This document shows, one piece after another, positions 1 through 19,095 of a DNA stretch of 24,477 nt. The stretch covers positions 1-24,477 of the forward strand of contig APJZ01000006.1 in assembly GCA_000387965.1 (NCBI GenBank). Direction: 5' to 3'. Each line of letters opens with the position of its first letter. The first letter of the stretch is position 1. The DNA is from Candidatus Nanobsidianus stetteri. Its GTDB lineage: Archaea; Nanobdellota; Nanobdellia; Nanobdellales; Nanobdellaceae. The position numbers and the translations under genes are program-made. The notes under the pieces are model-generated. The model was not told the DNA's origin. It did no database searches and saw nothing but the letters and a program-made list of their open reading frames with translations.

Positions 1-3000
1 TCTGCATAATTATTTATTGATTGAATTTGTGTGTTACATAATGATCCTGCACACATGGATTGTTGATATTCAAAATCTGAATTACAATTTCTAGAGAATT
101 GCGCTCCATTAAATATTATATAACATGTTTGTGCATTCTTATCTACTATATTAAATGTTGTTAATGATTGTAATTGTGCTCCATTTGGTGGGGAAATTAC
201 ATAACTTATTGGTAATATTATTGAATAATTATATATGTATGTATTCCATCCATAAATTGTAAATGTTATATTATAATCTTGTGGAGAACAATATAGATTT
301 GTTATATTAATTTCTACATTAAAATATCCTATTTGATTTGGATTTAATGAATTTATTTGACCACTAGTACTTAATATTTGTATACAACTTGAATTATAGT
401 ATATATTTTGTATAGATATATTTTCAGCAGGTACCGGTCCTGTATTTTGTACTGCTATAGTTATATTTGAAGGTTGTCCATATGTTATTTGAGTTAATGA
501 TGGATTAGTATATATATTTAATGTATCCCAGTTTATATTTACATATCCATAATATGTTACAGGATTATATACGGTTAATCCATATGCATTTTGATATGTT
601 ACACTATAATTTATCGTACAATCTTGATGTTGACATAGATCTGTTGGGAAATAAATATATAATGGAGAATATTGCTGTTGCTGTAATAAGAAACTACTAT
701 TTGGATCATTTGGAAGAGTCCAATTTATATTTATTGTAAGATTTCCTACTCCAACATTTGTTATATTACCAATATAAATTGCATCGCCTGGATTTATATT
801 ATAAATATATGGATAGTATGTTAAATTTTGTAAATATACACTAGCATTTGGATTTATTACTAATAAATAATATCCTGGTTCTGGGTATATTGGTAACCAT
901 CCTTCTGCCTGTCCAGTTATATTACCAATATTACATAAAATTCCATCTGCATCACATATATAATCTGCCGGATTATTACATATAGTTTTTACATAATCTT
1001 GATATATTACATAATAACCTGCATTATTTACACTAAAATTATATAAAGTAAAGTAAGAACTTCCTGAAGGGAAACCTTTTGGAACTAATAATCCTTCGTT
1101 TGGATATATATTATAAACAGTATTTCTATCTATATTATATTGTGTAAAGTTGAATGGTAGATTTGATATACCTTGTACATATTGGAATGAATTTGTATTA
1201 TAATATTGATTTGAGCTATATAACCAAGCAGAAACAGAGGGTGGAGTACTTTTTGTAGCACCATCGCTGCATAAATCGTTATACCCACTACTTACATTAA
1301 ATCCTACAGAACTATTTTGTGCTAGAACATATATTCCGTCATAATATGTATAATATGATCCTGAATATGGTCCATAATATGAGAATTGTATAGATAGAGG
1401 ATTTGAATCTGAATAAGCACCAGATATTGTCCATCCATGAGAACATGATTGAGTAGTAAATTCTCCAGAACTTGCTACTAATACTTGTAATGGATTATTA
1501 ATAAATGCTTGATTAAATGAAATATTGTCATAATAATATTCTCCATAATATATATAATTTCCAGCATTGTTATCATAATTACTTATATTTAGATCACATA
1601 AGTTCTGACCCCAATCTGGATCTCCAGATCCTGGACAATTTGTTCTAGTAACTACACTTGTTCCATTTGGTAAAATTACTGTAAAGTTAAAGTATGTATT
1701 ATTTAATAAATTATTTGAAGAAGGACAACCTGGAATTATTTGTCCTGCATCATCTGCTCCTTGATATATTGGATTTGTATAATATTCAAAATAATATGGA
1801 TAATTTAAATATATGAATCCTGTATAATTATATTGATCACAAGATAACAATTGGAGATTTTTACCACTTACTGTACAATTTTGAACAGTTATATTATAAT
1901 CTATTATTGTAGAATTCATATTATTTGGCAAATTTAATGGTAAATTGTTGAAATACACTGTATAATTATAAATAGGTGTAATATTTCCTAAATAACTATA
2001 ATTACCAATTGCAAAAATTTGTGATGGATTTGATGAATTATAAAATTCATAAGAAACTGTTACAGTTCCATTAAATCCTTGTGTTGTTATATTTAAAGAA
2101 TCTGAAGGTGTACATATTTGATTTGAACTTAGATATAGTTCCTGAGAATGTATATTAAATAATAGTGGTAATAAGACTAATACAAAGATAAATAATTTTT
2201 TCTTTTTCAGTACCATAAATAATATTATTGCGATAAATATTATTAATATTACCAGATAATAGTTTGAATAATTATAATTATTTTGCACATTATTTATTGG
2301 CTGTGTTTGATTTGTAGTTATATTTTGAATCGTATTATTTATTATCCATAAATTAGAATATTGAGATGAATAGAAAGAAATATAATAAACTCCACTACCC
2401 AATGTGTAATTTAAACAATTATTATTTATGTTTGTAGTATATATTATGTTTGATTCTGAATTATATCCTATATTTAATATTCCAGAAATATTTGAACATA
2501 TATAGAAATAATTATTTGTATAATTTACATAAATTAAATTACTTATTGGAATACCATAAGTATTTGATTGATTTAAAATATAATATGTACAATATGCATA
2601 ATCTAAATTATTATTAGAATATAGATTTATACATAAATCAAAGCTAGTAGAATTTAATGGTAATTGTAAATTCACATAAGTAAATTGCGTACTATTCCAA
2701 CTTATATTTCCTAAATATATATTTTCTTTAAATCCTAATGTATTTGAATAAACTTCTGCTATTACATTTGGAGTAACTGGATATGTATAATGATCTGGAG
2801 ATGGGGCTACTATAAATGTTAAATTTCCGTTACCTTGTAAATAAACACCATCTAATCTTGTTGTTGGACCTAAAACAATAAATCTTAATCTATATATTGA
2901 TTCTGTTTGATTATTATATAATAAAGTTATTCTTAATGAATAAGCATTTGGATTCAATGTTGCAACATTTATATATGGAATATTTATTATATTATATCCT

Positions 3001-3755
3001 TCATTTAGTTGTATATTTTCAGTATAATTGTATACGGGATTATATAAAATATCATCCCATGGGGATATTAAAATATTTAATGTAGCATTTGTATTTATAC
3101 TTGAATATATACCAACTGTTAAATTAATATAATTTGAAACACCATATCCGGAAGGCCCACTTAATGAGGAATAATAATATCCTGATGAAGATAATACACT
3201 ACCCCATGTATATAAAGCAGGAGAACTTAAATATGTATCATTTTTAATAATATAAATTTCTGGAACATTATTTGGGTTATTTATATAAAATTCTTGATAT
3301 ACTCCTGGATAATATATAAATGGTAGACCATTTATTTCACTTAAAGGTGTATATAAATATGCAACAATATAATAATATCCGGAAGGTAAATTATCCGGAA
3401 TTGTATAATTTAATGGTATATTTAAAGATTCTCCTGGTTGCAAATATATATTTTTTATTACATATTCATATACTTCATTATCAGATGTAAATTGGAATGG
3501 ATAAATATTATTATTATCATTTTTTTGTATTATTTGTATTACTAATGATGCGTTTGATATATAATAAATATCTCTATAATTTATATAAACATTATAATAC
3601 AATGTTTGACCTACAGATAAATTATTATTCGATAAATTTATACTCAAAAATGTTACTGGTTGATATAAAGATGTTGAATGCCATATATTATACCCCTGAG
3701 AAAAAATTGAATATAGGGAAAATAAAAGAAATGATAATAAATATATCTTTTTCAT
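1..3755 (-). CDS. Very large secreted/surface glycoprotein-like ORF, partial (runs off the left edge, at least 1251 codons). It holds two complete 'signal peptide + ectodomain' modules in one reading frame
   Basis: Hand translation of the minus strand. ATG at 3755-3753 is preceded by an in-frame TGA (3764-3762). The stretches I translated by hand (both ends, the 2142-2291 junction, 1-62) contain no stop; for the rest I rely on the supplied track, which lists no minus-strand ORF here and appears to omit edge-truncated ORFs. N-terminus MKKIYLLSFLLFSLYSIFSQ/GYN looks like a signal peptide. Composition is N/Y/I/S/T-rich with dozens of N-x-S/T sequons. A hydrophobic anchor YYLVILIIFIAIILF (2261-2217) is followed directly by MVLKKKKLFIFVLVLLPLLFNIHSQ/ELY (2216-2142), then a Cys-rich ectodomain with a CARDB/Ig-like stretch GQPSNITIAVQNTGPVPAENI (about 416-478). 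Confidence 0.75.
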   Translation of the reverse strand, partial: MKKIYLLSFLLFSLYSIFSQGYNIWHSTSLYQPVTFLSINLSNNNLSVGQTLYYNVYINYRDIYYISNASLVIQIIQKNDNNNIYPFQFTSDNEVYEYVIKNIYLQPGESLNIPLNYTIPDNLPSGYYYIVAYLYTPLSEINGLPFIYYPGVYQEFYINNPNNVPEIYIIKNDTYLSSPALYTWGSVLSSSGYYYSSLSGPSGYGVSNYINLTVGIYSSINTNATLNILISPWDDILYNPVYNYTENIQLNEGYNIINIPYINVATLNPNAYSLRITLLYNNQTESIYRLRFIVLGPTTRLDGVYLQGNGNLTFIVAPSPDHYTYPVTPNVIAEVYSNTLGFKENIYLGNISWNSTQFTYVNLQLPLNSTSFDLCINLYSNNNLDYAYCTYYILNQSNTYGIPISNLIYVNYTNNYFYICSNISGILNIGYNSESNIIYTTNINNNCLNYTLGSGVYYISFYSSQYSNLWIINNTIQNITTNQTQPINNVQNNYNYSNYYLVILIIFIAIILFMVLKKKKLFIFVLVLLPLLFNIHSQELYLSSNQICTPSDSLNITTQGFNGTVTVSYEFYNSSNPSQIFAIGNYSYLGNITPIYNYTVYFNNLPLNLPNNMNSTIIDYNITVQNCTVSGKNLQLLSCDQYNYTGFIYLNYPYYFEYYTNPIYQGADDAGQIIPGCPSSNNLLNNTYFNFTVILPNGTSVVTRTNCPGSGDPDWGQNLCDLNISNYDNNAGNYIYYGEYYYDNISFNQAFINNPLQVLVASSGEFTTQSCSHGWTISGAYSDSNPLSIQFSYYGPYSGSYYTYYDGIYVLAQNSSVGFNVSSGYNDLCSDGATKSTPPSVSAWLYSSNQYYNTNSFQYVQGISNLPFNFTQYNIDRNTVYNIYPNEGLLVPKGFPSGSSYFTLYNFSVNNAGYYVIYQDYVKTICNNPADYICDADGILCNIGNITGQAEGWLPIYPEPGYYLLVINPNASVYLQNLTYYPYIYNINPGDAIYIGNITNVGVGNLTININWTLPNDPNSSFLLQQQQYSPLYIYFPTDLCQHQDCTINYSVTYQNAYGLTVYNPVTYYGYVNINWDTLNIYTNPSLTQITYGQPSNITIAVQNTGPVPAENISIQNIYYNSSCIQILSTSGQINSLNPNQIGYFNVEINITNLYCSPQDYNITFTIYGWNTYIYNYSIILPISYVISPPNGAQLQSLTTFNIVDKNAQTCYIIFNGAQFSRNCNSDFEYQQSMCAGSLCNTQIQSINNYA

Positions 3756-3780
3756 AAAAATTCATTCATAAAAAATTTTT

Positions 3781-5643
3781 TTAAATCTTCTTACCAGTTG
3801 CAATTTCTATAACTTCATCTATTGTTTTTACAGGTGTTATTTTTATCTTATCAAATAAATCTTCAGGTATATCATTATAATTACCCTCCGGTACTATAAC
3901 TTCTTTTAATTTAGATTCTATTGCAGCTTCTACTTTTGCTATTATACCGCCAACAGGTAATACCTCTCCCCTTATTGATAAAGAACCTGTCATTGCCAAA
4001 TCCTGTCTCACTGGCCAATTCTTTAATGCGGATATTATTGCAGTTGCAACAGTTATTGAAGCTGAATCTCCCTCTACACCTTCATATGTTTGTAAAAATT
4101 GAACATGAACTTTGTATTTCTTCAAATCTTCTCCAAATTTCTTTTTTACTACTGCAGATACATTTACTATTGCCTCTTTTGCAATCTTTCCTAAGTTTCC
4201 AGTAGCAGTAATTTCTCTACCACCCTTTCCAGGTACAACCTCTGCCTCAACAGGTAATACCAATCCTGAATAATATAACCTTGATCCAATTACTGCCAAT
4301 CCATTTACCCTTCCAATTTCATATCCATCAGTTTTTATTATTTGATATTCTTTCCTTCTTTCAATATAATATTTTGATATTTGCTCTTCAATTGTTAATG
4401 CTTTTTCCTTTGCTTCTATAACATCTTCAGGTTCGACATATTTTTTTCCTTTTGACTTTGCAATATCTCCAGCCAATCTTACCAATCCTCCCAAATCTCT
4501 TAATCTTAATGTTAAATAACTTTTTCTTCCAGATCTTCTTTGGGCTTCTCTAATAATTTCTATAACAGCCTCTTTTGTAAAATGTGGTATATTACCTGTC
4601 TTTTTAACTTCTTGCGCTACAAATTGTACAAATTTATTTGCACTTTCTTCTGTAAATAATATTTCAGAATTCATAAATACTTCATATCCATATCCTCTTA
4701 TTCTTGATCTAAATGCTGGATGTAATTTTTCCAATGTTTCCAAATTTCCAGCTGCTACTAATACAAAATCAGCGGGAGCTGGAGTAGTTCTTACCATTGC
4801 ACCAGCAGATCTTTCAGATCTTCCAAATATTGGATATTTCTTTTCTTGTAAAACAGATAATAATTCTATCTGAACCTCTGGTCTTAATGTTCCAATTTCA
4901 TCTATAAACAATACTCCTTTATTTGCCTTATGTATTGCACCAGCAATTACTCTTTGATGTGCTGGAGTTTCAAGACCTCCAGATTGAAATGGATCATGTA
5001 ATACATCTCCAAATAACATACCTTCAAATGCACCTGTAGCATCTACGAATGGTACAGAAGTTCTGTTTGAATTATCTACCAATAATTTTGGTATATTTTT
5101 CATTATTTGCTTTTGCATTACTTGGAAAGAAAATGATATGCTAGCCATTAAAATCATAAATCCGATAAATGTTGCACCGGCCATTATATAATTTCCTTCA
5201 TAGTAAAAGTACATTGGAGTAAATGCTGATATAAGTAATAATAAAATATAGAAATATTGGAAAATTTTTGTTTGTTCCAATACTTTTTTTCTCATTTCTT
5301 CTACAATTTTTTTACCAGTTCCCATTGGTACCGTTTTTATTATTGGTTGATATTCATCATTTGGATTTGGGAATACCAATATATCTTCTAAATTTTTAAC
5401 TTGTTCTTTATCTTCTGATAATATTTCTGCCAATGCTTGTGCTAGCATAGATTTACCAGTACCAGGATCTCCTATTAATAAAACATGCCTCCTCTGTTTA
5501 GCAGCTTTTTTAATTATATCCAATGCCTTATCTTGTCCAATAATTTGCTCTGATATCTTTTCAGGTACATTTATTTCTTCTGTAGTCTTAAATTTGAATA
5601 TACTATATAGATCCTTTATTGATATTATGTTATTTTCGGACAT
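3781..5643 (-). CDS. lonB: Archaeal membrane-bound Lon protease (LonB type)
   Basis: 620 aa. Walker A GDPGTGKS. Two hydrophobic helices are inserted in the AAA+ module ([19 protein letters not shown]..., [18 protein letters not shown]), which is typical of archaeal LonB. C-terminal Lon protease domain with Ser motif [20 protein letters not shown] and downstream Lys ([10 protein letters not shown]). Confidence 0.95.
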
Positions 5644-6695: not shown

Positions 6696-6737
6696 ATAAT
6701 ATTTAAAAGGTTAACTTTATAAACATAATATTTAAAA
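6696..6737 (+). promoter_or_regulatory. tfb upstream region: TATA-like TTTATAAA flanked by a perfect 13-bp direct repeat
   Basis: ATAATATTTAAAA occurs at 6696-6708 and again at 6725-6737. TTTATAAA at 6716-6723 is centred 25.5 nt upstream of the tfb ATG (6745). Confidence 0.35.
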
Positions 6738-6744
6738 ATTTATT

Positions 6745-7671
6745 ATGGTTCAAAAGCTTATAAAAAATCCTGAATTGAAATGTCCAGTATGTGGAAGTAC
6801 AGAATTTATATACAATGAAAAGACAGCAGAGCTAGTATGTGCAAAATGTGGTTATGTAATTGAAGAAGTTCCATATCTAGGAAAGGAATATAGAACAATA
6901 AATTCAGAAGATGCAGAAAAGTTATCAAGAACTGGCAGTGCAATGAGATATACAAATATACCAAGTATGATATCAACAGAAATTGGAAAGGCAGAATCAA
7001 AAGATGAAGATGTAACATTATCAAGAAAATTAAAGAAATGGCAACAGAGATCTACAAGTTCTTATGAAAGAAACTTAAAATTAGCACAACAAGAATTAAG
7101 AAGAATTTCTTCATTCTTACAATTACCAAAACAAGTAGAAGAAACAGCATTGAAATTATATTTAGATGCTGTTGAAAAAGGATTAATTAGGGGAAGATCT
7201 GTAGAAACAGTTATTGCTGCATGTACATATATAGCATGTAGAATACATGATGTTGCAAGAACAATAGATGAAATAGTTAAAGCATCAAATATACATAAAA
7301 AAGAATTGGGAAGAACATATAAACACTTATTACAAGCATTAAAGATAAAAATACAACCAATAGATGTTACAGAATATGTACATAGATTTTCATCATTATT
7401 AGGTTTACCACCAGAAGTTATATCTACAGCAATAGAGATTGTTAATAAAGCAAAAGAATCTGATATAACTGCTGGTAGAGGCCCAGCAGGGGTTGCAGCA
7501 GCTGCAATATATTTAGCATGTGTAAAACATGGAATACAAAAGACACAAAAAGATATAGCAGAAGTTGCCGGAATAACTGAAGTTACAATAAGAAATAGAT
7601 ATAAGGAGATGTTAGAAAAATTAAATCTTAAAGATATTGAAGCAAAGATGAATAGCGCTGAGGAATGGTAA
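6745..7671 (+). CDS. tfb: Transcription initiation factor B (TFB/TFIIB)
   Basis: 308 aa. N-terminal Zn-ribbon CPVCGSTEFIYNEKTAELVCAKCG, followed by two cyclin-like repeats (RGRSVETVIAACTYIACR..., GRGPAGVAAAAIYLACV...) and the HTH-like tail QKDIAEVAGITEVTIRNRYKEM. Confidence 0.95.
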   Translation: MVQKLIKNPELKCPVCGSTEFIYNEKTAELVCAKCGYVIEEVPYLGKEYRTINSEDAEKLSRTGSAMRYTNIPSMISTEIGKAESKDEDVTLSRKLKKWQQRSTSSYERNLKLAQQELRRISSFLQLPKQVEETALKLYLDAVEKGLIRGRSVETVIAACTYIACRIHDVARTIDEIVKASNIHKKELGRTYKHLLQALKIKIQPIDVTEYVHRFSSLLGLPPEVISTAIEIVNKAKESDITAGRGPAGVAAAAIYLACVKHGIQKTQKDIAEVAGITEVTIRNRYKEMLEKLNLKDIEAKMNSAEEW

Positions 7672-7943
7672 TATTACCAAAGGCATTAAAAATCAAAAAT
7701 AGATATATTTTATTAGATTTTTTTGATGAAGAAAAATTAAAAAAGGATTTTATTAAATATTTTGGATATATAAATTATTATGATTTACATTTAAATAAAA
7801 TAGAAATAAATAAAAGAATAATTTTGGCAGTAAACAAAAAACATTTGTATAAAATTATCTTTTTATTATATTTACAAAATATAAAAAATTTTAAAATATT
7901 TAAAACATTAAAAGGTGCAAAATCTTTTTTAAATATATCTTAA
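7665..7943 (+). CDS. Short Pop5/Rpp14-like protein (candidate RNase P protein subunit)
   Basis: 92 aa. N-terminal ILPKALKIKNRYILLDFFDE resembles the archaeal Pop5 LPPTLR-x-K-x-RYIAF motif. C-terminal KIFKTLKGAKSFL resembles Pop5 IFRTLGVSGTIKRL. It lies immediately upstream of psmA, the conserved Pop5-PsmA-SBDS position in the archaeal exosome superoperon. Shorter than typical Pop5 (about 120 aa). Overlaps the tfb stop by 7 nt. Confidence 0.55.
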   Translation: MVILPKALKIKNRYILLDFFDEEKLKKDFIKYFGYINYYDLHLNKIEINKRIILAVNKKHLYKIIFLLYLQNIKNFKIFKTLKGAKSFLNIS

Positions 7944-7954
7944 ACTTTATCTTT

Positions 7955-8671
7955 ATGGAAACTGATATTGGACAATTTGGACCAATGGATAGGGGATGGG
8001 CAATATTCTCACCAGAAGGAAAATTAATATTAGTAGAATATGCAAAACAAGCTGCAAAAGCTGGATCAACAGCAATTGGGATATGTACAACAGATGGTGT
8101 ATTAATAATTGCAGATAAAAAAATTCCAAGCAAATTAATTATAACAGATTCTATTGAAAAGATTATGGAAATTGATGATCATATAATTGGAACATTCTCT
8201 GGATTTATACCAGATGGTAGGGTATTAATAGATTATGCAAGGGAAATTGCTCAACAACATAAATTACAATATGGAAAACAAATAGATATAGAATTATTAG
8301 TAAGAGAAATAAGTGATATAATGCAATCTTATACAAGATTTGGTGGAGTAAGGCCTTTTGCTGTATCATTAATAATTGGAGGAATAGATAAAGATGGTGA
8401 ACCAAAGTTATTTTCATTAGATCCATCCGGAATATTTTATAGATATAAAGCTGTTGTAATTGGGGAAGGTGAAGATAAAATTACACCAATATTAGAAGAA
8501 AGATATAAAGAAATGGATTTAAATGAGGCAATTAAATTTGGAATAGATGTATTAAAAGAATATTTGGGAAATAATTTCGCATATGAAAGATTAATATTAT
8601 CATATGTAAAGAAAGGTGAAAAAGTTAAAACAATTGAAAATCATGAAATAAGAGAACTATATGAAGGATAA
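7955..8671 (+). CDS. psmA: Proteasome subunit alpha
   Basis: 238 aa. N-terminal MDRGWAIFSPEGKLILVEYAKQAAKAGSTAIGI matches the alpha-subunit signature (YDR-x-ITVFSP-x-GRL-x-QVEYA). Typical length. Confidence 0.95.
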   Translation: METDIGQFGPMDRGWAIFSPEGKLILVEYAKQAAKAGSTAIGICTTDGVLIIADKKIPSKLIITDSIEKIMEIDDHIIGTFSGFIPDGRVLIDYAREIAQQHKLQYGKQIDIELLVREISDIMQSYTRFGGVRPFAVSLIIGGIDKDGEPKLFSLDPSGIFYRYKAVVIGEGEDKITPILEERYKEMDLNEAIKFGIDVLKEYLGNNFAYERLILSYVKKGEKVKTIENHEIRELYEG

Positions 8672-9350
8672 AGATACAGAAATAAGTATAAAATATAAAA
8701 AAGAAGGTTATAATTTTGAAATAATTGTATATTTGAGAAAGGCTTTTGAATACAAAGAAGGAAAAATAAAAGATATAAAGGAAGTATTGGCTGTAGAAGA
8801 AATTTTTAAAGATTCTAAAAAAGGGGAGAGGGCATCAACTGAATCTTTAAAGAAGGTTTTTGGAACTACGAATATTCTTGAAGTTGCTAAACAAATATTG
8901 GAAAATTCCGAAATTCCATTACCTACAGAATATAAAAGAGAATTAATCGAGGAAAAGAAAAAACAGATTATTGAATATATAAGAAAAATAGCATATGATA
9001 GTAAAAATAACATGCCATTAACATATGAAAGAGCAAAAGAATTATTTGAAATTGTAAGATATAATGTAGATATAAATAAACCAGTAGAAAAACAGGCTGA
9101 AGAGGTTTTAAAGGAAATAAGAAAGAAATATCCATTAAAGATAGAATATAAAAATATAAAACTTATAGTATATCCAAATAGATTCAGGATAATTGGAATA
9201 ATAAAAAATAAATATAAAATTATAAAAGAAAATTGGGGTGAAAATTATGAAGCAATATTGGAAATCCCAATCGGATTATTATCGGAATTTTATTCAGATA
9301 TAGGAAAATTATGTGGAGAAGATTGTATAGTTGAAGAAATAAAAAAATAA
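8661..9350 (+). CDS. SBDS/Sdo1-family ribosome maturation protein
   Basis: 229 aa. FEIIVYLRKAFEYKEGKIKDIKEVLAVEEIFKDSKKGERASTESLKKVFGTTNILEVAKQIL matches the SBDS N-terminal (FYSH) domain consensus. Overlaps the psmA end by 11 nt. Conserved position after psmA. Confidence 0.9.
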   Translation: MKDKDTEISIKYKKEGYNFEIIVYLRKAFEYKEGKIKDIKEVLAVEEIFKDSKKGERASTESLKKVFGTTNILEVAKQILENSEIPLPTEYKRELIEEKKKQIIEYIRKIAYDSKNNMPLTYERAKELFEIVRYNVDINKPVEKQAEEVLKEIRKKYPLKIEYKNIKLIVYPNRFRIIGIIKNKYKIIKENWGENYEAILEIPIGLLSEFYSDIGKLCGEDCIVEEIKK

Positions 9351-10052: not shown

Positions 10053-11672
10053 TTACATAGAATCGTAAATGTTTGTATATTCGTTTATATTATTTTTCCA
10101 ATCAAATTTCTTAGATATTTCATATATTTGCTTCTTTATTTCCATTTTACCATATAAATCCAAATTATAATATTGTAAAAATTTATTATATATAATTTCT
10201 TTATCCAAATTGTTTGGATCTACATTAATTATATATTCATGATTTATGTTTTTACTTATTAGATTTCTATAAAATCCAGTTTTATTAGATAAAACAATTG
10301 GAACAAAATTGTTCAATGCTTCTAATGGTGTATATCCGTAAGGTTCATATCTTGATAAAAATATCCCAAAATCGAATGCTGGTAATATATATTCTGGATC
10401 TAAGCTAAATAAAATATCATTTCCAAGATAAACTGGAACATATATAACTTTTACATAATTATTTTTATCATTATTTAAATTGTTTTCCCTTAATTTTTCA
10501 ATTATAATATTATTTTCTACATCATGAGTACATATTGGTGGATTTTTATTCTTTATCCTATCTAATTTATCCAATATATTTTTTCCATTATATAATGATC
10601 TAATAATTAAATGAATATTTTCTTCTATACTTTCTTTCAATTTTATATACTCTTTATAAGATCTAATTATATCATTATTTTGTCCTTTAATATTATAAGG
10701 AACAAAAATAAATGCAACAGTACTTAATTTCTTTTCATCTAAATATTTCAATAAATCAATAAATAGATCTAAACCCTTATTATATGGTTCGTATCTTCCA
10801 ATTGTATATATTAGCAAATATTTTTCTGGTAAATCATAATATGGATAAAAATACCATGTTAAAATTTCATCTATCCATTTCTTTGAAATTTTATAATAAT
10901 TAAATAATTCTTTTTCTTTTACATTTATGTAATTATAAGTTATATAATCTGGCTTTCTCTTATATATTTTATATGCTTCCTCTCCCAAATTATCAGATAC
11001 TACTGTAAAAATATCAGAATTTAATATTGCCTGTTTTTCCAATTGATATTTTGAATTTACTCCCAATCTATATGAATCCTTATCTGGATCTATTATATCA
11101 AATGCATTCTCTACATTTACATTTTTTTCAGATAATGTTCTTCCAATAACTGTTCCATGAATTGTTAATATTGTTTTATAATTTAGATTATTTTTCTTTA
11201 TATATAATATTGTACCTCCAGATAACCATTCATGCGCATGTAATATTTTTTTCTCATTAAAATATTTATCCAATTTTTCTAAAAATATACCAACAGCAAC
11301 AGACCATAATAATGGCTCATCAAAAGTAAAATCTGAATTTAAAGAATCTATTTTATACCATTCCCAATATTTATATTTCCATAAATTTCTTTCTTTATTA
11401 AAAAATTCATCAAATTCTATCAAAAATACATTTGGTTTTGATTCAATATTCCAATATCCATAATGTACTTTAATTCCATCCAATTGATAATTTATTTCTT
11501 TTATATAATCCGGAGAATCCAATTCTATAAATTCCGAATTATTTTTATAGGGACCAATTAAAAAATACTTATCCTTATATTTTTCCTTTATATATTTTGC
11601 TTTAGTAGATATTACAGTATATATTCCTCCTACTTTATTACATACTTCCCAAGATTGTTCAAACAATATCAT
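10053..11672 (-). CDS. Glycogen (starch) synthase, eukaryote-type GT3 family
   Basis: 539 aa. N-terminus [42 protein letters not shown] closely parallels the animal/fungal glycogen synthase N-terminus as I recall it ([24 protein letters not shown]...DNYFLVGPY). C-terminal [29 protein letters not shown] parallels PSYYEPWGYTPAEC...SGFG. Confidence 0.85.
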   Translation of the reverse strand: [539 protein letters not shown]

Positions 11673-12331
11673 CTAAATAAAATATCAAATATACTTCTTC
11701 TCCTTTTATTACCAGTTATACAATATGCCAGCTCATCTATATATTTTAATGCCTTTGATTTTTCATTATAAAATGCAATTGGTTGATATTGAAATTGATA
11801 TTTAATAAAATCTTTAATTACTGGAATAACTACATATACTTCTTTATTATATACATCCTCTATAAAATCTATTTCAATACTTTTATCATATTTATTTAAT
11901 ACTATCTTAACCTTATTTTTATCTAAAAGATCATATAATTTTTTATTTACATATAAAGAATAAAAGTCTGGATTTATTACTAAAAAATTTATATCTGATA
12001 TTTTCTCAATACTTAATATATAATTTATATTTGGAAGTACATCGAAAATAATTACATCATAATACCTTTTCAAATAATTTAGATCACTGATATTAAAATC
12101 TAAATTATCTATAATTTTTAAATGGAAGTAGGGTAATACTTTTATTCCTTCATATATTTTATTTCCAAATAATTTTTCATTATTTAGAAATATTAAATTT
12201 GAAGAATAAGTACCATTTGTATCTATTATTAATACCTTATAATTATATTCTTTTTTTAAATATGCTGCAAGATTATTAGTCAATGTTGTTTTTCCAACTC
12301 CGCCCTTTAATGATATAAAAGATACTATCAT
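11669..12331 (-). CDS. ParA/MinD-family P-loop ATPase with basic-amphipathic C-terminal tail
   Basis: 220 aa. Deviant Walker A with signature Lys (SLKGGVGKTTL). Walker A' VLIIDTN and Walker B DVIIFDV. C-terminus NKRRRSIFDILFR resembles a MinD-type membrane-targeting helix (compare KGFLKRLFG). ATGA 4-nt overlaps with both neighbours. Confidence 0.85.
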   Translation of the reverse strand: MIVSFISLKGGVGKTTLTNNLAAYLKKEYNYKVLIIDTNGTYSSNLIFLNNEKLFGNKIYEGIKVLPYFHLKIIDNLDFNISDLNYLKRYYDVIIFDVLPNINYILSIEKISDINFLVINPDFYSLYVNKKLYDLLDKNKVKIVLNKYDKSIEIDFIEDVYNKEVYVVIPVIKDFIKYQFQYQPIAFYNEKSKALKYIDELAYCITGNKRRRSIFDILFR

Positions 12332-12642
12332 AATCCTAATAATTTTGAAAATTTTACTTCAGCCTCTTCTTTTGAAAACTTTTTCTTTACATATATTTCA
12401 TGAGCTTTTAAGAAATTTCCTATAATTTTTATATATTCATCCTTATCTTTTGCTTCTTTTATTTTTTCATATAAACTTTCCTCCTTTAATGAATTTTTTA
12501 TCCATTCTGGAAAATGGTTTTTATGATAATTAAATTTATCTTGATCTGCATTGTATAACCAAATTAATAAATCTTGAAGACTATATAATTTTTGTCCATC
12601 AATAGTGATAAATGCTTGTTTTTCATCATCAACTTCAATCAT
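12328..12642 (-). CDS. Small soluble protein, unknown function, first gene of the ParA-GT3 operon
   Basis: 104 aa. Pattern FITIDGQKLYSLQDLLIWLYNADQDKFNYHKNHFPEWIKNSL followed by a K/E-rich helical tail. From memory it resembles a small domain found near GH57/glycosyltransferase genes in other archaea, but I cannot name the family with confidence. TGA stop overlaps the ParA ATG. Confidence 0.55.
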   Translation of the reverse strand: MIEVDDEKQAFITIDGQKLYSLQDLLIWLYNADQDKFNYHKNHFPEWIKNSLKEESLYEKIKEAKDKDEYIKIIGNFLKAHEIYVKKKFSKEEAEVKFSKLLGL

Positions 12643-12679
12643 ATTAAATTTTATATTGTTATATCTTTAAAAGATATTT
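12643..12679. promoter_or_regulatory. 37-bp divergent spacer with two interdigitated TATA-like boxes (ParA-GT3 operon / GH57)
   Basis: TTTTATAT (12649-12656) is centred 27.5 nt from the + ATG (12680). TTTAAAA (12666-12672) is centred 27 nt from the - ATG (12642). Confidence 0.35.
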
Positions 12680-13855
12680 ATGACAGGCATTGTATTTTAT
12701 TTCCATGCACATCAACCAAGAAGAATAAGATATTATTCCTTTTTTGATATTGGATCGAAAAATTATTTCAACGATGATCTAAATAAGAGAATATTAGATA
12801 GGGTTGTACATAAATGTTATAAACCGGCATTAGAAATGATATATGATAATATTATAAAATACGATATAAAAGTATCATTTTCAATTTCTGGAACATTAAT
12901 TGAGCAATTAGAACTATATCATCCAGAAATTTTAGAATTATGGAAAAAATTAGTAGATACTGGAAATGTAGAAATTGTATCAGAAACATACTATCATTCA
13001 TTGGCATATTTAATTGATAAAGATGAATTTATTAACCAAATAAAATTGCATAGAAAGAAAATAAAGGAAGTATTTAATTATAAATCTAAAAGCTTTAGAA
13101 ACTTTGAACTTGTATTTAACAATGAAATAGGAGAAATTGTATATTCTTTAGGATATAAAGTTGCATTAACTGAAGGAACTGAAAAAATTTTGGGAAATAG
13201 AAGTCCAAATTATGTATATAAATTAAAAATAAATAATTTAAGATTATTATTGAGAAATTATAGATTATCTGATGATATAGGATTTAGATTTACAAATAAA
13301 AATTGGTCAGAATATCCATTAACTGCAGATAAATATTATTTATGGTTAAAGAGCACTCCAGGAGATATAATAAATATATTCATGGACTTTGAAACAATTG
13401 GAGAACATATATGGAAAGAATCTGGAATATTTGAATTTTGGAATAAGTTATTTGAATATATTGGAAAAGAAAAATATTTTGAAACATACAATATAACCGA
13501 AGCTTCAGAAGAGTTAGATTATAAAGATGAATTAGATATTCCTGAATTAATATCATGGGCAGATATTGAGAGAGATCTATCTGCATGGATTGGAGATAGT
13601 ATACAAAGAGAAGCATTAGATTATTTGAGAGAATTATATAAAAAATATAAGAATGATGGAAAAATATTAAATATATTGAGATATTTATCAACTTCAGATA
13701 ACTTTTACTATATGAGTTTAAAATATAATAGCGATGGAGATGTACATAAATATTTTAGGGAAGAAGCTTTTGCAACTCCATATGATTCTTTTATATCCTA
13801 TATGAATATTTTAAAAGATTTAGAATTAAATGAGACTATTGAAAATAGAAATTAA
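12680..13855 (+). CDS. Glycoside hydrolase family 57 enzyme (alpha-amylase, 4-alpha-glucanotransferase or branching-enzyme class; specificity unresolved)
   Basis: 391 aa. GH57 conserved regions: FHAHQP (region I), GNVEIVSETYYH (II), an E-containing FELVFNNE (III, candidate nucleophile), FMDFETIGEH (IV, candidate acid/base Asp) and LSTSDNFYYM (V). Confidence 0.8.
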   Translation: MTGIVFYFHAHQPRRIRYYSFFDIGSKNYFNDDLNKRILDRVVHKCYKPALEMIYDNIIKYDIKVSFSISGTLIEQLELYHPEILELWKKLVDTGNVEIVSETYYHSLAYLIDKDEFINQIKLHRKKIKEVFNYKSKSFRNFELVFNNEIGEIVYSLGYKVALTEGTEKILGNRSPNYVYKLKINNLRLLLRNYRLSDDIGFRFTNKNWSEYPLTADKYYLWLKSTPGDIINIFMDFETIGEHIWKESGIFEFWNKLFEYIGKEKYFETYNITEASEELDYKDELDIPELISWADIERDLSAWIGDSIQREALDYLRELYKKYKNDGKILNILRYLSTSDNFYYMSLKYNSDGDVHKYFREEAFATPYDSFISYMNILKDLELNETIENRN

Positions 13856-15022
13856 TTTTTCTACAGAATTTTTCCAAGATAAATTTTTTATATCATCTAA
13901 ACATAATTTTATCTCATATTCTCCCAATTTTGGATAAGATAGCAATGCTAATATATAATCCGCCATTTTATTTACATCCCAAAAATCAACTGCCAATGCG
14001 TTTTTTAATACTTCATATACACCTGTTTGTTTTGATATTATAATAAAGTCTTTATATTTTAAAGCTTCAAATGGTGTTAAACCAAAAGGTTCTGATATGG
14101 ATGGCAAAACAAATATATCCGCTATTGAATATAAATATTCTGCTAGATCGTCATCAACCCATCCTGTAAATATTACATTTTTTGATATATTTAAATCTGC
14201 AGCCATTTTTATTAATTGTTCTAACATTTCTCCGGTTCCTGCAAATATAAATAATACATCCTTTCTTTTTTCTAAAACTCTTTTAGCCGCTCTTAATAAA
14301 TAATCTGGACCCTTATGCATTGTCATTCTCCCAAGATATAATACTATTTTATATTTTTCTTTTATTTTACTATTTATTTTTTCTTTTATACTAAAATCAT
14401 CATCCGGAGCATTATATATTACATCAATTTTATTTTCATCACAATTATAATATTTTACCAATATATCTTTCTCTCTTTTACTTACTACTACAATCTTATC
14501 TGCATATTTACAAGCTTCCAACTCTATTCCATAATCATAATCATATAAATATTTTAATACATCTGGATTTCCTCCAACTCTATCATATACCAAAGAATGA
14601 AAATGAATAACCAATGGTTTTTTGTATATTTTCTTTATTTCTATACCTGCTAAAGCAGTTAACCAATCATATGCATATATAATATCAAAATCTAATTTCA
14701 TTTTCTTTAATATATCTAATATTCTATCTTTATATTCAATTACTGCTTTTTTATAGTCTATAATTTTTCTTTTATATAATGTAAAAGATCCATATTTAAA
14801 ATAATCTATATATGATTGATATAATTTCATATTTAATCCGAAGATTTTTGAATTCTTTAATTTATTATTCCAAAAGGATTTTACATCATCGGTCAAGTTT
14901 AAAATAAATAAATAAACAACATTATTAAAATAATCAAGATATTTTAAATAATAATATGTTACTTTTTCCAATCCACCACCTTTTTGAGGAAATACTCCCC
15001 ATGATAAAAATAGTATTTTCAT
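13826..15022 (-). CDS. GT-B glycosyltransferase, GT4/GT5 (GlgA-like) family
   Basis: 398 aa. N-terminus MKILFLSWGVFPQKGGGLEKV resembles archaeal GlgA (E-x-PP-x-KVGGL). C-terminal nucleotide-sugar motif PSISEPFGLTPFEALKYK. The 3' end overlaps the convergent GH57 3' end by 30 nt. Confidence 0.8.
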   Translation of the reverse strand: MKILFLSWGVFPQKGGGLEKVTYYYLKYLDYFNNVVYLFILNLTDDVKSFWNNKLKNSKIFGLNMKLYQSYIDYFKYGSFTLYKRKIIDYKKAVIEYKDRILDILKKMKLDFDIIYAYDWLTALAGIEIKKIYKKPLVIHFHSLVYDRVGGNPDVLKYLYDYDYGIELEACKYADKIVVVSKREKDILVKYYNCDENKIDVIYNAPDDDFSIKEKINSKIKEKYKIVLYLGRMTMHKGPDYLLRAAKRVLEKRKDVLFIFAGTGEMLEQLIKMAADLNISKNVIFTGWVDDDLAEYLYSIADIFVLPSISEPFGLTPFEALKYKDFIIISKQTGVYEVLKNALAVDFWDVNKMADYILALLSYPKLGEYEIKLCLDDIKNLSWKNSVEKLISIFNSLI

Positions 15023-15073
15023 AATTAAAAGATAAATAAAAATGATTATAAATCTTTTAACAAAAATATTTGT
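15023..15073. promoter_or_regulatory. 51-bp divergent spacer with a central palindromic TTATAA (GT4/5 / debranching enzyme)
   Basis: TTATAA at 15046-15051 is 26.5 nt from the - ATG (15022) and 25.5 nt from the + ATG (15074). Confidence 0.3.
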
Positions 15074-16678
15074 ATGGAAAAGGAAATTGAATTAGAAAAT
15101 TTTGATTATGCTATTATAAATAATAAAGGATCCTTTTTGTTTTTACCTTTACTATATAACAGTAGATATTTTGGTTTATTACAATATTATAATAACAATT
15201 TTATCAAAATAATAGAAAAGATAGAAAATAGGGATATAAATTATAGTGAAATTGAAAAGATAATATTAAAGGATTATAATGATTTAAAAATAATTTATAA
15301 AAATGGATGGGAAGAATATAAATTAATAGATAATAAATTAATATATAAAACAAATAAATATTCTACTTTGAATGTTTATTTTGATATAAGATATTTATAT
15401 GATATAGATGAATGGGGAAGGATATATAATAATGAAAAAAATAAGGATTATGTAAAGATAAAATTTAATAAAGGCGATTTAAATTATGAAGTAATAATAA
15501 AGGGATTTGAGATTTATCAAGAATTAAATAAATGGATGAAGGTAAATTATAATTATGATTTATATAGAAAATCTCCCCCATTTGAAAGATATATATATTT
15601 ACCATTTTCTTTTTATGCAAAGGAATTGGAAATAATATATAAAAATGATAAGGAAAATTTAAATGGAAAGAATTTAATTGAAAATAGATTATTATCCTTT
15701 ATTTATGATAATAACATTTCTGCAGGTTTTCCATGGTATTTTCAGGAATGGAGTAGAGATTTGTTAATTTCATTAAAGGGATTATATTATATTAATAAAG
15801 ATATTGTAAAGAATAAGTTAATTGAATATTCAAATTATTTTTTACTAGATGGAAGATTAAAAAATATAAAAAATGAAAATGTTGGTAATTCTGATGGGAT
15901 TGGATTGTATATTTTTAGATTATTTCAATTTAAAGATTTGTTTGAAAAAGAAATATTTGACAAATTAATAAATAATATAATTGAAAAGTTAAAATTATTT
16001 GAAGAAAATTATTTAGATGAAAAATTATTTTTATTTAAAGCATATCAAAATGAAACATGGATGGATACATTAAATAGAATTTATCCAATAGAAATACAAT
16101 TCTTAATGGCAAATGCATATGATAATTTATATAATTATACAAAGAAAGATGAATATAAAGAAAAATTGGAAAAAATAAGAAATTCAATTAGAAAGAATTA
16201 TTTATCAGATTATTCTTTATATGATGATATAAAAAATAAAAAGATAAGATGCAATGTATTTTTATCCTATTATTTTTATCCAAAGATCTTTTCAAATTAT
16301 GAGTGGGAAAATATTTTTGATTATTCATTAACTCATTTATATCTAAAATGGGGAGGAATTAGTAGTTTATCTATATTTGATAAAGAATTTATTCCATATA
16401 GTAATGAAGATAATTATTTTAAAAATGAAGGAAAGTCAATGCATAATGGAGATTCATGGATTTTTATAAACAACATTGCTGCTATTGATTTATATAATTT
16501 AAATAAAGAAAAATATGGAAATATAATAAATAGTATTTTAAAATCTAATGAAAGATTGATAAAAATGATAGGAACATTACCAGAAAGATCTAGCGCATAT
16601 GAGTTAAAACCAGCAGGGGCTCTACATCAACTATGGTCAATATCAACTTATATAGAATTATTAAATAATATAAAATAA
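15074..16678 (+). CDS. Amylo-alpha-1,6-glucosidase / glycogen debranching enzyme (GDE C-terminal family)
   Basis: 534 aa. Motifs GFPWYFQEWSRDLLISLKGL (compare G-x-PWF-x-x-WGRDT), ETWMDT, HNGDSWIF and LPERSSAYELKPAGALHQLWSIS (compare GC-x-x-QAWS) fit the (alpha/alpha)6 GDE_C fold. Confidence 0.75.
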   Translation: MEKEIELENFDYAIINNKGSFLFLPLLYNSRYFGLLQYYNNNFIKIIEKIENRDINYSEIEKIILKDYNDLKIIYKNGWEEYKLIDNKLIYKTNKYSTLNVYFDIRYLYDIDEWGRIYNNEKNKDYVKIKFNKGDLNYEVIIKGFEIYQELNKWMKVNYNYDLYRKSPPFERYIYLPFSFYAKELEIIYKNDKENLNGKNLIENRLLSFIYDNNISAGFPWYFQEWSRDLLISLKGLYYINKDIVKNKLIEYSNYFLLDGRLKNIKNENVGNSDGIGLYIFRLFQFKDLFEKEIFDKLINNIIEKLKLFEENYLDEKLFLFKAYQNETWMDTLNRIYPIEIQFLMANAYDNLYNYTKKDEYKEKLEKIRNSIRKNYLSDYSLYDDIKNKKIRCNVFLSYYFYPKIFSNYEWENIFDYSLTHLYLKWGGISSLSIFDKEFIPYSNEDNYFKNEGKSMHNGDSWIFINNIAAIDLYNLNKEKYGNIINSILKSNERLIKMIGTLPERSSAYELKPAGALHQLWSISTYIELLNNIK

Positions 16679-17727: not shown

Positions 17728-19095
17728 ATGTGGAATAGGATTATTATTAATAGTTATTTAAACCATAAGGATAATATTTTATCTGCTATTATTATTGATT
17801 TAGTTGATAATAAATACTTAATAAAAGAAAATTATTTACAAATAATTGCAGGAAACTTTAAGATTTTAATAAGCAAAATGTTCTTAAACATTAAAAAAAT
17901 AATTAGATCTTTAATAATTGTTTATACACGACATAGACATCATAGAAATCATAATAGATTTCATAGGCATAAGCACTGGTATGATGATGATTATTATTAT
18001 AATAATGTAAGTGGGAGCAAACCTAAGAGAAGTAGAATTATTAAAATTATTGCTCGTATCATAATAATTTCATTAATAATACTTATAGTCATTTATAATC
18101 CATCATATATAAAACAAATATTAAAAACTTTACAAACAAGCATTAACAATATTTCAACAACTATACAATCAGCAATCTTATCCACACAACCTACAATAAA
18201 TTCAACATGGGTTTTCCAATTCTTTAACATTGTAAATCAATATAGACAATCAACTGGTGCTCCACCATTGCAATATTGTCCTTGGCTAGATAATTATGCT
18301 CATATTAGATTCGAAACAATGATTCAGAACCCAGAAATAAGTCATTATGGTTTTGATCAAGACTTTAATGAATACTTTAGTCAATATCAAGATTTATTAG
18401 TCAGTGAGGAAGTATTATATCCAGATGGATATACACCAGATGAATATGTACAGGATATGCAATCAGAGGCCCCAATTCATTGGGAAGGTTTATTAGATTC
18501 TAATTACACATATTATGGATATTATATCGGTTATGGACCAACCTATGCAATTATTGGTTCATGTCCAGTAACTGAAATAGTGGGATCAGTAAATGTACCA
18601 CAATACTTCCAATCTTATGGATGTTCAGTGGAACTTGAAAATAGTACTTGGTTAGTAATTGAATTGAGTAACTGGTGCAGTGGACCTACAACAATTACAG
18701 TTTCAACGATTAATGAAGATCTTTCTCCTCAATATTATATATACTTACCAATACAATATAATTTACCAACAAATGAAGAATATGTAAAATTAGTCGTAAA
18801 TATTACATCAACAAGTCCTGTTGAATTATTTTTATTCACACCAGATCAATTTACTTACTTTGAAAGTTTATACCAACAAGAAGCATGGTCATTTACAGGA
18901 CCTGCATATTATTATGGTGGTATATCAACAACATTTAACACTGAGATTACATTAAATACATATCAATTAGCTAATGGTGGCTATTATTTAGTAATTAGCA
19001 ATGTACTTCCGGATGCTCAATATACATACGTAAATGGTAACATAACAATTGTATATACACCAACAACACCAAATATATTATCCAACAATAAATAA
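17728..19095 (+). CDS. Type-II membrane-anchored protein: His/Arg-rich cytoplasmic segment, one TM helix, extracellular CAP/SCP(YkwD)-like domain, C-terminal beta-rich domain
   Basis: 455 aa. YTRHRHHRNHNRFHRHKHWYDDDYYY (aa 66-91). TM IIKIIARIIIISLIILIVIY (aa 104-123). CAP-like pattern FFNIVNQYRQSTGAPPLQY...LDNYAHIRFETM...SHYGF...EEVLY...IHWEGLLDSNYTYYGYYIGYG. C-terminal module SPVELFLFTPDQF...GGYYLVISN...ITIVYTP. The true start Met is uncertain (an alternative is M51). Confidence 0.6.
   Translation: MWNRIIINSYLNHKDNILSAIIIDLVDNKYLIKENYLQIIAGNFKILISKMFLNIKKIIRSLIIVYTRHRHHRNHNRFHRHKHWYDDDYYYNNVSGSKPKRSRIIKIIARIIIISLIILIVIYNPSYIKQILKTLQTSINNISTTIQSAILSTQPTINSTWVFQFFNIVNQYRQSTGAPPLQYCPWLDNYAHIRFETMIQNPEISHYGFDQDFNEYFSQYQDLLVSEEVLYPDGYTPDEYVQDMQSEAPIHWEGLLDSNYTYYGYYIGYGPTYAIIGSCPVTEIVGSVNVPQYFQSYGCSVELENSTWLVIELSNWCSGPTTITVSTINEDLSPQYYIYLPIQYNLPTNEEYVKLVVNITSTSPVELFLFTPDQFTYFESLYQQEAWSFTGPAYYYGGISTTFNTEITLNTYQLANGGYYLVISNVLPDAQYTYVNGNITIVYTPTTPNILSNNK

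Follow-up and report, generated by a model that had tools for sequence, protein, structure and literature searches.

A conserved in-frame fusion of two surface-protein genes, with a predicted internal signal peptide at the junction, in Candidatus Nanobsidianus stetteri and related archaea

The stretch of DNA analysed here, 24,477 nucleotides (nt) of Candidatus Nanobsidianus stetteri (GenBank assembly GCA_000387965.1, contig APJZ01000006.1, positions 1 to 24,477; at its full length hereafter "the window"), carries on its minus strand a surface-glycoprotein open reading frame (ORF) in which two modules are read as one. Judged by comparison with its relatives, this ORF is a conserved Rosetta-stone fusion of two neighbouring genes that were ancestrally separate and translationally coupled: the signal-like segment in its interior is the ancestral N-terminal signal of the second gene, and the KKKK motif that precedes this segment marks the point at which the basic tail of the first protein meets the n-region of the second signal. 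Processing of the fused product by signal peptidase into two membrane-anchored chains is moderately probable, and the two chains, once made, probably function jointly as a heteromeric surface complex, possibly as paired surface glycoproteins with a role at the cell surface or in host contact. The surface proteins of DPANN archaea, which live attached to their hosts, are almost wholly uncharacterized. The data presented below define a surface module of two genes that is conserved across DPANN lineages and lacks a Pfam family for either half, and the fusion, as a natural Rosetta stone, indicates that the two proteins work together.

Translation of positions 1-3755 of the minus strand yields an ATG at 3755 followed by a stop-free frame of at least 1251 codons, which leaves the window at its left edge. 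The full-length protein is approximately 1415-1420 amino acids (aa) in close orthologues, such that 1251 codons lie in the window; orthologues of 1410-1461 aa cover 100% of the ORF, and its best matches are Ca. Nanobsidianus stetteri/Nanopusillus proteins at 82-90% identity. The stop codon of the LonB protease gene precedes this start by 25 nt, and the neighbouring genes of the window encode archaeal housekeeping proteins (TFB, proteasome alpha, SBDS, and LonB). These matches and neighbours mark the organism as a Nanopusillaceae-type nanoarchaeon, which is an ectosymbiont of Sulfolobales-type hosts. At the GC content of the window (approximately 22%), approximately 9% of random codons are stops, and arithmetic from base composition places the chance of 1251 open codons at approximately 1e-53; the AAA and AAG codons of the KKKK loop are, in addition, each one mutation away from TAA or TAG. 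Given this expectation of stops and the mutability of the loop codons, the fused frame is under selection.

The predicted parts of the protein follow one another, all on the minus strand, with no stop codon between them. An N-terminal Sec signal peptide (aa 1-20; 3696-3755), reading MKK, IYLLSFLLFSLY and SIFS with the cut before Q, is recognized by its hydropathy and by the retention among orthologues of a c-region composed of I/V-x-S followed by Q. The module 1 ectodomain (aa 21-497; 2265-3695) consists of four β-sandwich domains and an N-glycosylated stalk (aa 476-497), as indicated by AlphaFold2 (AF2) modelling, N-glycosylation sequons and stand-alone homologues. It is followed by the first transmembrane segment (TM1; aa 499-516, YYLVILIIFIAIILFMVL; 2208-2261), the hydropathy maximum of the whole protein (Kyte-Doolittle, KD, 3.74) and the putative stop-transfer anchor of module 1, assigned from hydropathy, an AF2 helix and stand-alone homologues. 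The basic loop KKKK (aa 517-520; 2196-2207), a conserved basic cluster predicted to be cytoplasmic, would give TM1 its tail and at the same time provide the n-region for the signal-peptide-like segment that comes next (aa 521-537; 2145-2195). This internal segment comprises the h-region LFIFVLVLLPLLF and the c-region NIHS and is called on its geometry, its (-3,-1) pattern and its descent. The module 2 ectodomain (aa 538-1251; 1-2144), identified through AF2 modelling, sequons, 19 Cys and homologues, is a cysteine-rich β-sandwich array that is incomplete here: its last approximately 170 aa, C-terminal TM included, lie outside the window, and in close orthologues this third hydrophobic anchor ends the full-length protein. 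The junction itself reads ...NYNYSN-YYLVILIIFIAIILFMVL-KKKK-LFIFVLVLLPLLFNIHS-QELYLSS... (aa 499-538 corresponding to nt 2261-2142), and an internal Met codon (aa 514; 2214-2216), selected on the basis of its conservation, is a candidate start for a module 2 pre-protein beginning MVLKKKK.... An earlier note on this DNA, made from its letters alone, had described two modules joined in frame without a stop and an internal ATG at 2216, and the translation agrees with that description exactly.

The fused arrangement is shared well beyond this organism. Twelve homologues emerged from a search of 5.8 billion proteins; each is a single ORF of 1173-1461 aa that includes both halves at 90-100% query coverage. 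Scanning GTDB with one genome for each species identified 11 loci, each with one continuous frame (11/11), and N. acidilobi 7A, Nanobdella aerobiophila MJ1 and YN1 are represented among them by finished genomes. A profile search of 1.84 billion cluster representatives, which gave 157 hits, adds three fused forms at approximately 25-30% identity (P0014, P0015 and P0016); two of these, P0014 and P0016, retain the place between LonB and a convergent threonyl-tRNA synthetase gene (ThrRS) and are therefore orthologues. There are 24 distinct fused orthologues from independent assemblies (Nanopusillus, Nanobdella, YN1, and metagenomes) with a common open frame and a common cassette of TM1, basic loop and signal-like segment, and within the Nanopusillaceae-type lineage every member is fused. 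Each full-length fused sequence contains four hydrophobic segments in the same order, namely the N-terminal signal, TM1, the segment after the basic cluster, and the C-terminal anchor. The basic cluster is kept in all fused orthologues (as KKKK, RKKK, KRWK, KKRK or RLFRRGAK), and both halves are conserved at the amino acid level, with invariant Cys, Gly and Pro columns. A divergent orthologue from a Nanopusillus metagenome-assembled genome (MAG; L011, 1-3954) is missing the first approximately 230 aa of module 2 and keeps the TM1-KKRK-signal cassette (...NNIYG, then QSS), so the domains that directly follow the predicted cut are plastic.

These comparisons bear directly upon the concern, raised in the earlier note, that a stop codon or indel at the junction might have been missed during assembly. 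The supposition that an assembly or sequencing error deleted a stop, or that the ORF is a pseudogene, draws on the A-rich, indel-prone run AAAAAGAAAAAA at the junction and on an in-frame TAA within module 1 of one low-coverage metagenome contig (L012, coverage 6). That stop, however, sits 60 codons upstream of TM1 and away from the junction, and the supposition is opposed by the occurrence of the same frame in 24 distinct sequences, three finished genomes among them, by the amino acid conservation and invariant columns of both halves, and by conserved synteny. Because the 24 orthologues that carry one open ORF at this locus derive from independent assemblies, a missed stop or indel is excluded, and artefact or decay of any kind is exceedingly improbable.

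Evidence that the two halves were once separate genes comes from relatives in which they still are. In the profile search, approximately 100 proteins of 500-640 aa match module 1 alone; among the 44 stand-alone module 1 proteins studied, a C-terminal TM is present in all 44 and a basic cytoplasmic tail in 41, and the N-termini printed for these look signal-peptide-like. More than 15 stand-alone module 2 relatives are likewise found among the 157 hits, those possessing module 2 only and their own N-terminal signal peptides including P0064, P0071, P0080, P0103 and P0109, and L014_g2 and L019_g2 are also homologous to module 2. The context of the split genes was analysed on five independent DPANN contigs with a GC content of 29-49%, two of them from NCBI MAGs, of which one is labelled Nanoarchaeota archaeon. 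On all five, a module 1 gene encoding a signal peptide, ectodomain, TM and basic tail is overlapped, by 4, 8, 8, 14 and 8 nt, by a downstream gene whose product begins with a signal peptide of its own. On four of the five contigs this second gene is homologous to module 2: L014 (profile E 2.5e-106), L019 (profile E 5e-55), L015 (profile E 7e-13, the gene being cut by the contig end) and L013 (phmmer E 1e-10 to 1e-14 against known module 2 relatives).

The halves of the fused ORF thus exist elsewhere as separate genes that are adjacent, co-oriented and in the same order, and it is the existence of these overlapping split pairs, together with the mutual unrelatedness of the two modules, that argues for a Rosetta-stone fusion. 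The split DPANN pair (module 1, e.g., P0021, P0032 and P0171; module 2, e.g., P0080 and L019_g2) resembles the fused ORF in its homologous ectodomains, their order, and the presence of signal peptides, TM and basic tail, but differs from it in comprising two ORFs with an ATGA-type stop/start overlap of 4-14 nt and, in many module 2 relatives, additional Cys-rich or other N-terminal domains. Its hosts are Woesearchaeota-like or "Nanoarchaeota archaeon" MAGs, and the pair is unnamed and falls outside Pfam and NCBIfam families. The earlier proposal of two genes of one architecture with the intervening stop missing is accordingly upheld as regards the joining of genes that are separate in relatives; the joining, however, was an evolutionary event and not an error, and the likeness between the modules is topological only, the ectodomains being unrelated and paralogy of module 1 and module 2 ruled out (hhalign probability 0.1%). 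Frameshifted fused genes, considered as a source of the split homologues, are opposed by the overlapping starts, the separate signal peptides and the five independent contigs.

Individual loci add detail to this picture. The protein P0013, considered as a true stand-alone module 2, was rejected as such, as it is a fused gene with an in-frame TCA to TAA change on contig L012. On that contig the TAA (1176-1178; TCA in relatives) lies in module 1, with approximately 60 codons separating it from TM1. Gene calling resumes there at an internal MMKKKK (1341-4679), and module 2 carries a tandem duplication of its first approximately 230 aa. On the fifth split contig, L017, the module 1 gene is preceded at a distance of 6 nt by a gene for a 1475-aa protein (568-4995) with faint bMG3, SpaA and CarboxypepD_reg matches and is followed by a gene for a 787-aa secreted protein (6703-9066); in this cluster the partners may number more than two or be interchangeable.

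Sequon content and structural modelling inform the topology of the fused protein. The module 1 ectodomain contains 21 N-glycosylation sequons, compared with 12.2±3.0 in shuffled sequences, and the module 2 ectodomain 33, compared with 15.7±3.4, in addition to its 19 Cys, many of which are invariant. Cytoplasmic proteins of the window contain 0-4 sequons versus 0.3-4.5 when shuffled, counts that lie within about one standard deviation either way, and the enrichment seen in both ectodomains resembles that of the secreted thermopsin encoded in the window. Since sequons are enriched in both ectodomains, both are placed outside the cell and the KKKK loop in the cytoplasm, which fits the order put forward in the earlier note (ectodomain out, TM1, KKKK inside, second segment, ectodomain out). 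An AF2 model of aa 1-1200, built from a 77-sequence alignment, has a predicted local distance difference test score (pLDDT) of 84.7, which exceeds 90 over aa 21-390. It displays β-sandwich domains, the glycosylated stalk (aa 476-497) at low confidence, a helix at 498-516 corresponding to TM1, a short low-confidence helix at 522-528 and, already at 539-542, the first strand of module 2. Module 2 modelled alone reaches a pLDDT of 89.5 and a predicted template modelling score (pTM) of 0.67.

The segment that follows the basic cluster has many of the attributes of a Sec signal peptide. The earlier note had already likened it to the other two signal peptides of the window. The distance between its basic cluster and position -1 is 17 residues, versus 16 in the two N-terminal signals (that of the ORF itself and that of the thermopsin), and it has the same (-3,-1) pattern and a Gln at +1. 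Its h-region of 13 residues, which includes a Pro, compares with 18 residues for TM1, and its c-region presents I at -3, S at -1 and Gln at +1 (I-H-S, then Q). Across lineages the corresponding c-regions read IHS/Q, VNS/Q, IYG/Q, VYS/Y, VFS/S, SYS/L and IKA/D (a slash denoting the predicted cut); sequence turnover is complete, yet position -1 is S, G or A and position -3 is I, V or S, with Q often at +1. In Nanopusillaceae orthologues the internal c-region mirrors the N-terminal one of the same protein (IFS/Q, IYS/Q), whereas distant lineages keep the small -1 residue alone (VYG/L, VHG/E). In the AF2 model no stalk separates the internal segment from the first folded domain, while each of the two true anchors has a low-confidence or glycosylated stalk in front of it. 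When considered as a Sec class I signal, the segment has a positive n-region, a short h-region and small uncharged residues at -1 and -3 (positions assigned by eye); it is internal in the long ORF (aa 514-537) and becomes N-terminal only with a start at ATG 2216.

On the strength of this signal geometry, the c-region and the descent of the segment from a genuine N-terminal signal, a polyprotein cut by signal peptidase is the best supported of the three readings offered in the earlier note, with the amendment that the predicted cut probably falls between S537 and Q538, before the Gln and not after HSQ. In the mechanism proposed here, the N-terminal signal peptide would open Sec translocation of ectodomain 1, TM1 would halt transfer with KKKK remaining in the cytoplasm, and the former gene 2 signal peptide would re-insert as a reverse hairpin and launch translocation of ectodomain 2. 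An archaeal type I signal peptidase would cut co-translationally between S20 and Q21 and between S537 and Q538, and the products would be two N-glycosylated, membrane-anchored chains made in an obligatory 1:1 ratio at one translocon, chain 1 ending in a TM1-KKKK-signal hairpin and chain 2 being held by the C-terminal TM beyond the window. A leaderless internal transcript from ATG 2216 may add module 2 separately. In Nanobdella, MJ1_0412 has been reported as a signal peptidase gene (bioRxiv 10.1101/2023.10.27.564410).

Several observations weigh against fusion followed by processing. The cleavage positions were chosen by eye, so the agreement with the (-3,-1) pattern carries no P-value; the internal segment, with a KD of 2.9, is more hydrophobic than the N-terminal signal (KD 2.1) and, at 17-21 residues, could span the membrane uncleaved; and a conserved Met with a TATA-like box at -32 raises the prospect that module 2 may be made independently, lessening the need for cleavage of the long form. 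The pTM of the long AF2 model, 0.45, is uninformative with regard to contact between modules 1 and 2, and on one of the five split contigs (L017) a relation of the downstream gene to module 2 was undetectable by profile and phmmer comparison. The rank of the Nanobdella orthologue MJ1_0095, below 100th in expression (bioRxiv 10.1101/2023.10.27.564410), implies that it is not a major envelope component and argues against a main S-layer role.

Were the second segment a permanent TM, the product would be an uncleaved, double-headed chain of approximately 1420 aa resting on a central helical hairpin and a C-terminal anchor. Such an arrangement is consistent with the KD of the segment, which is near that of the C-terminal TM (2.65), with its 17-21 uncharged residues, with a basic loop of 4 residues that is plausible as a tight hairpin, and with the helix-turn-helix, albeit of low confidence, in the AF2 model. 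It accounts poorly, however, for the persistence of small -1 and permitted -3 residues through complete sequence turnover, for the descent of the segment from the real N-terminal signal of a separate gene, for the lack of a stalk before the first folded domain, and for the Pro/Gly or polar residues found in the C-terminal third of the segment in almost all lineages; module 2 would, moreover, be pinned to the membrane at both ends. An uncleaved hairpin protein is thus considered unlikely.

The remaining alternative, nested in-frame genes in which a leaderless messenger RNA (mRNA) starting at ATG 2216 yields the module 2 pre-protein, either additionally or as the main source, draws upon the promoter architecture of the window. 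A TATA box (consensus GCTTTAAAAG) is present at 14 of the 21 listed gene starts, including 5643(-), 5682(+), 6745(+), 12642(-), 12680(+), 15022(-), 22937(-) and 3755(-), and begins 30-34 nt before the ATG in 13 of these and at -26 in one, spacing from which it follows that leaderless mRNAs are the norm in the window. The box of the fused gene itself, GATTTAAAAA (3778-3787, minus strand), starts 32 nt upstream of its ATG and overlaps the lonB stop codon, which implies that its mRNA is leaderless or nearly so; at the starts of fused genes the TATA score is 4.2-8.2 bits in ten Nanopusillaceae loci and 1.0-4.1 bits in three distant fused loci (L021-L023). Several divergent gene pairs of the window have back-to-back promoters. 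Within the TM1 coding sequence, a TATA-like element, TATTAATAAT (2239-2248, minus strand), starts 32 nt upstream of the internal ATG and is a candidate internal promoter; its position weight matrix score of 3.81 bits falls within the 1.3-7.3 bits of real promoters (leave-one-out) and ranks in the top 6-10% of internal ATGs.

In favour of such a start, every fused lineage has a Met 0-3 residues ahead of the basic cluster, save for P0005, a close variant with Ile at that site. A Met so placed occurs in just 7 of 44 stand-alone module 1 proteins, a count which rules out a general trait of module 1. At -29 to -34, scores of 3.2-6.2 are reached in eight of nine lineages, and GCTTTAATAA in L022 and L023 (25-30% identity) ranks among the top 0.6-0.8% of positions in its own coding sequence. 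Just 5-12% of positions in TM-rich genes reach such scores, so that a TATA-like box is in part ruled out as an automatic feature of TM-coding DNA, but resampling of synonymous codons attributes most of the TATA-likeness to an x-L-I-I amino acid motif with AT-rich codons (per-lineage P 0.01-0.55, combined 0.025), and a combined rank P of 3e-6 is inflated by the shared ancestry of the lineages. Synonymous diversity upstream of the ATG is 0.178 versus a gene mean of 0.136, and the lack of a dip speaks against a conserved nucleotide element there; L011 scores only 1.5; and an internal start alone leaves the open frame across mutable AAA codons unexplained unless the long product matters. The conserved Met and canonical -32 spacing therefore lend the internal initiation put forward in the earlier note some substance without establishing it, the TATA-likeness being mostly a matter of the amino acid motif. 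Nested genes remain a tentative proposition, and the narrower claim that a productive internal start supplements, and does not replace, the polyprotein route is held with similar reserve. More speculative, and rather doubtful as a whole, is a dual-output model in which the TM1 codons for x-L-I-I (TTAATAAT) double as a TATA box 32 nt before the Met, such that a 1:1 polyprotein resolved by signal peptidase I (SPase I) would be accompanied by extra module 2 in a core host-contact complex with viral-envelope-like biogenesis.

The proposed processing, which we favour over both alternatives, has precedents in other systems. In viral structural polyproteins one ORF encodes successive units that run from an ectodomain through a stop-transfer TM and a short basic cytoplasmic loop to an internal signal; the polyproteins of flaviviruses (prM-E), alphaviruses (E2-6K-E1) and bunyaviruses (Gn-Gc) are processed by the signal peptidase of the host (see also PMC6756788, PMC6784171). 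The fused ORF resembles these in its tandem ectodomain/TM/internal-signal units, in the two-helix C-terminal hairpin that the upstream product would keep, and in the 1:1 output of products expected at one translocon; it differs in being a cellular archaeal gene for which cleavage is predicted from sequence, and no viral glycoprotein or class II fusogen is among the 50 best structural matches listed for BFVD or for PDB. Although the internal-signal polyprotein strategy is a textbook one for enveloped viruses, it is rare in prokaryotes. One bacterial parallel is FbcH of Bradyrhizobium japonicum, a cytochrome b-c1 precursor reportedly described as split at an internal signal peptide by Thöny-Meyer and colleagues in about 1991. 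Leader peptidase cuts the internal signal of FbcH to give two membrane proteins of one complex. FbcH, like the fused ORF, is a cellular prokaryotic polyprotein with an internal Sec signal in its downstream half and with genes that are separate in other species; unlike the fused ORF, it is bacterial, belongs to the respiratory chain, has a polytopic upstream half and no glycosylated ectodomains, and shares no homology with it. A search of the literature for an archaeal internal signal peptide of this kind found no description of one, and to our knowledge this would be the first archaeal cellular surface polyprotein resolved at an internal signal peptide. The principle of biogenesis is already known from viruses and a few bacterial proteins; what is new is the family, the DPANN-wide split pair, the fusion and the possible nested promoter.

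The orthologue MJ1_0095 of Nanobdella aerobiophila (62% identity, 99% query coverage) is listed by Kato et al. under "other cell surface proteins," with Ig-like folds, many N-glycosylation sites and a C-terminal TM (bioRxiv 10.1101/2023.10.27.564410). That study treats MJ1_0095 as one protein, leaving the internal TM/signal cassette, the fusion origin and processing unmentioned, and gives the S-layer role to MJ1_0160 and MJ1_0707 (bioRxiv 10.1101/2023.10.27.564410). No Pfam, NCBIfam or PDB sequence match connects the fused ORF with archaeal S-layer proteins of the SlaA/SlaB or NEQ300/MJ1_0160 type, and its orthologue MJ1_0095 does not show the very high expression expected of them. Annotators and structure predictors that take these ORFs as one protein would misjudge the mature products. 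Three relatives (Nanobdella aerobiophila, YN1 and N. acidilobi) are kept in co-culture, which makes the predictions put forward here directly testable; the predicted mature N-terminus of module 2 is (pyro)QTITVSPTNLCSPSGSV... in MJ1_0095 and QELYLSSNQICTPSDSLNITTQGF in the window ORF.

The Gln that would begin this N-terminus recurs at other predicted cleavage sites. All three Sec signals of the window (3696-3755, 2145-2195 and 22875-22937, all on the minus strand) end in [I/T]-x-S followed by Gln (IFS/Q, IHS/Q and TYS/Q), and the Gln after the predicted SPase I site persists in most orthologues, a pattern hinting that proteins secreted in this lineage bear pyroglutamate at the N-terminus. In the "Q-rule" of Bacteroidetes, a Gln exposed by the SPase I cut is cyclized to pyroglutamate (PMC5837995). 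The window shares the +1 Gln, but the Q-rule is bacterial and involves a dedicated glutaminyl cyclase, while the sample here is three signals, with no search made for a cyclase.

Comparisons of fold and family place the modules in no described group. Searches of Pfam, NCBIfam and PDB sequences with the modules returned nothing above threshold, and neither module belongs to a curated family. The best Foldseek matches are arrays of MG domains in α2-macroglobulin, complement and CD109, with E values of 1e-17 to 1e-12 but TM-scores of just 0.1-0.2 and a root-mean-square deviation above 38 Å. What is shared with α2-macroglobulin, complement C3-C5 and CD109 is the repeated β-sandwich (MG-like) domain type alone and not family membership: no fused orthologue contains the thioester motif C[GL]E[QN] or an A2M-family Pfam match. 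One stand-alone module 1 protein does have a faint precomputed MG2 match. Among the 50 best matches listed from BFVD, and the 50 best listed from PDB for each of the two models, none is a viral envelope glycoprotein or class II fusogen (E, E1, Gc, HAP2 or fusexin); the BFVD and PDB matches listed are generic Ig, MG, DUF11 and Big arrays.

Other features of the window and of neighbouring loci deserve mention. The 698-aa protein encoded at 20841-22937 on the minus strand, which the earlier note had compared with module 1 for its similar ending, does have a C-terminal TM that runs up to the stop codon, but it is without a basic tail, and its family is that of the thermopsin acid proteases (Pfam PF05317, 1.2e-47); it also has an N-terminal signal and 30 sequons. 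Small proteins among the conserved neighbours, with class III (prepilin/archaellin-type) signals, MK[EGN]QFS followed by a hydrophobic stretch, occur in L001 (a 215-aa ORF on the reverse strand) and as equivalents in L002-L009. A putative glycogen-metabolism cluster at 10053-16678, judged from translations alone, appears to include a 539-aa glycogen-synthase-like protein, a 391-aa GH57-like protein, a 398-aa glycosyltransferase-like protein and a 534-aa ORF. Lastly, the adjacent plus-strand genes at 17728-19095 and 19171-20016 encode N-terminally anchored proteins, one with a CAP/SCP domain and the other with a long NYTNLQ-repeat coiled coil, that have a weakly similar C-terminal domain of approximately 100 aa (BLASTP E 0.027) and nearly identical tails (...Y-T-x-x-P-x-[IL]-L-[ST]-N-(N)-K-stop); this common tail may be a sorting or interaction element.

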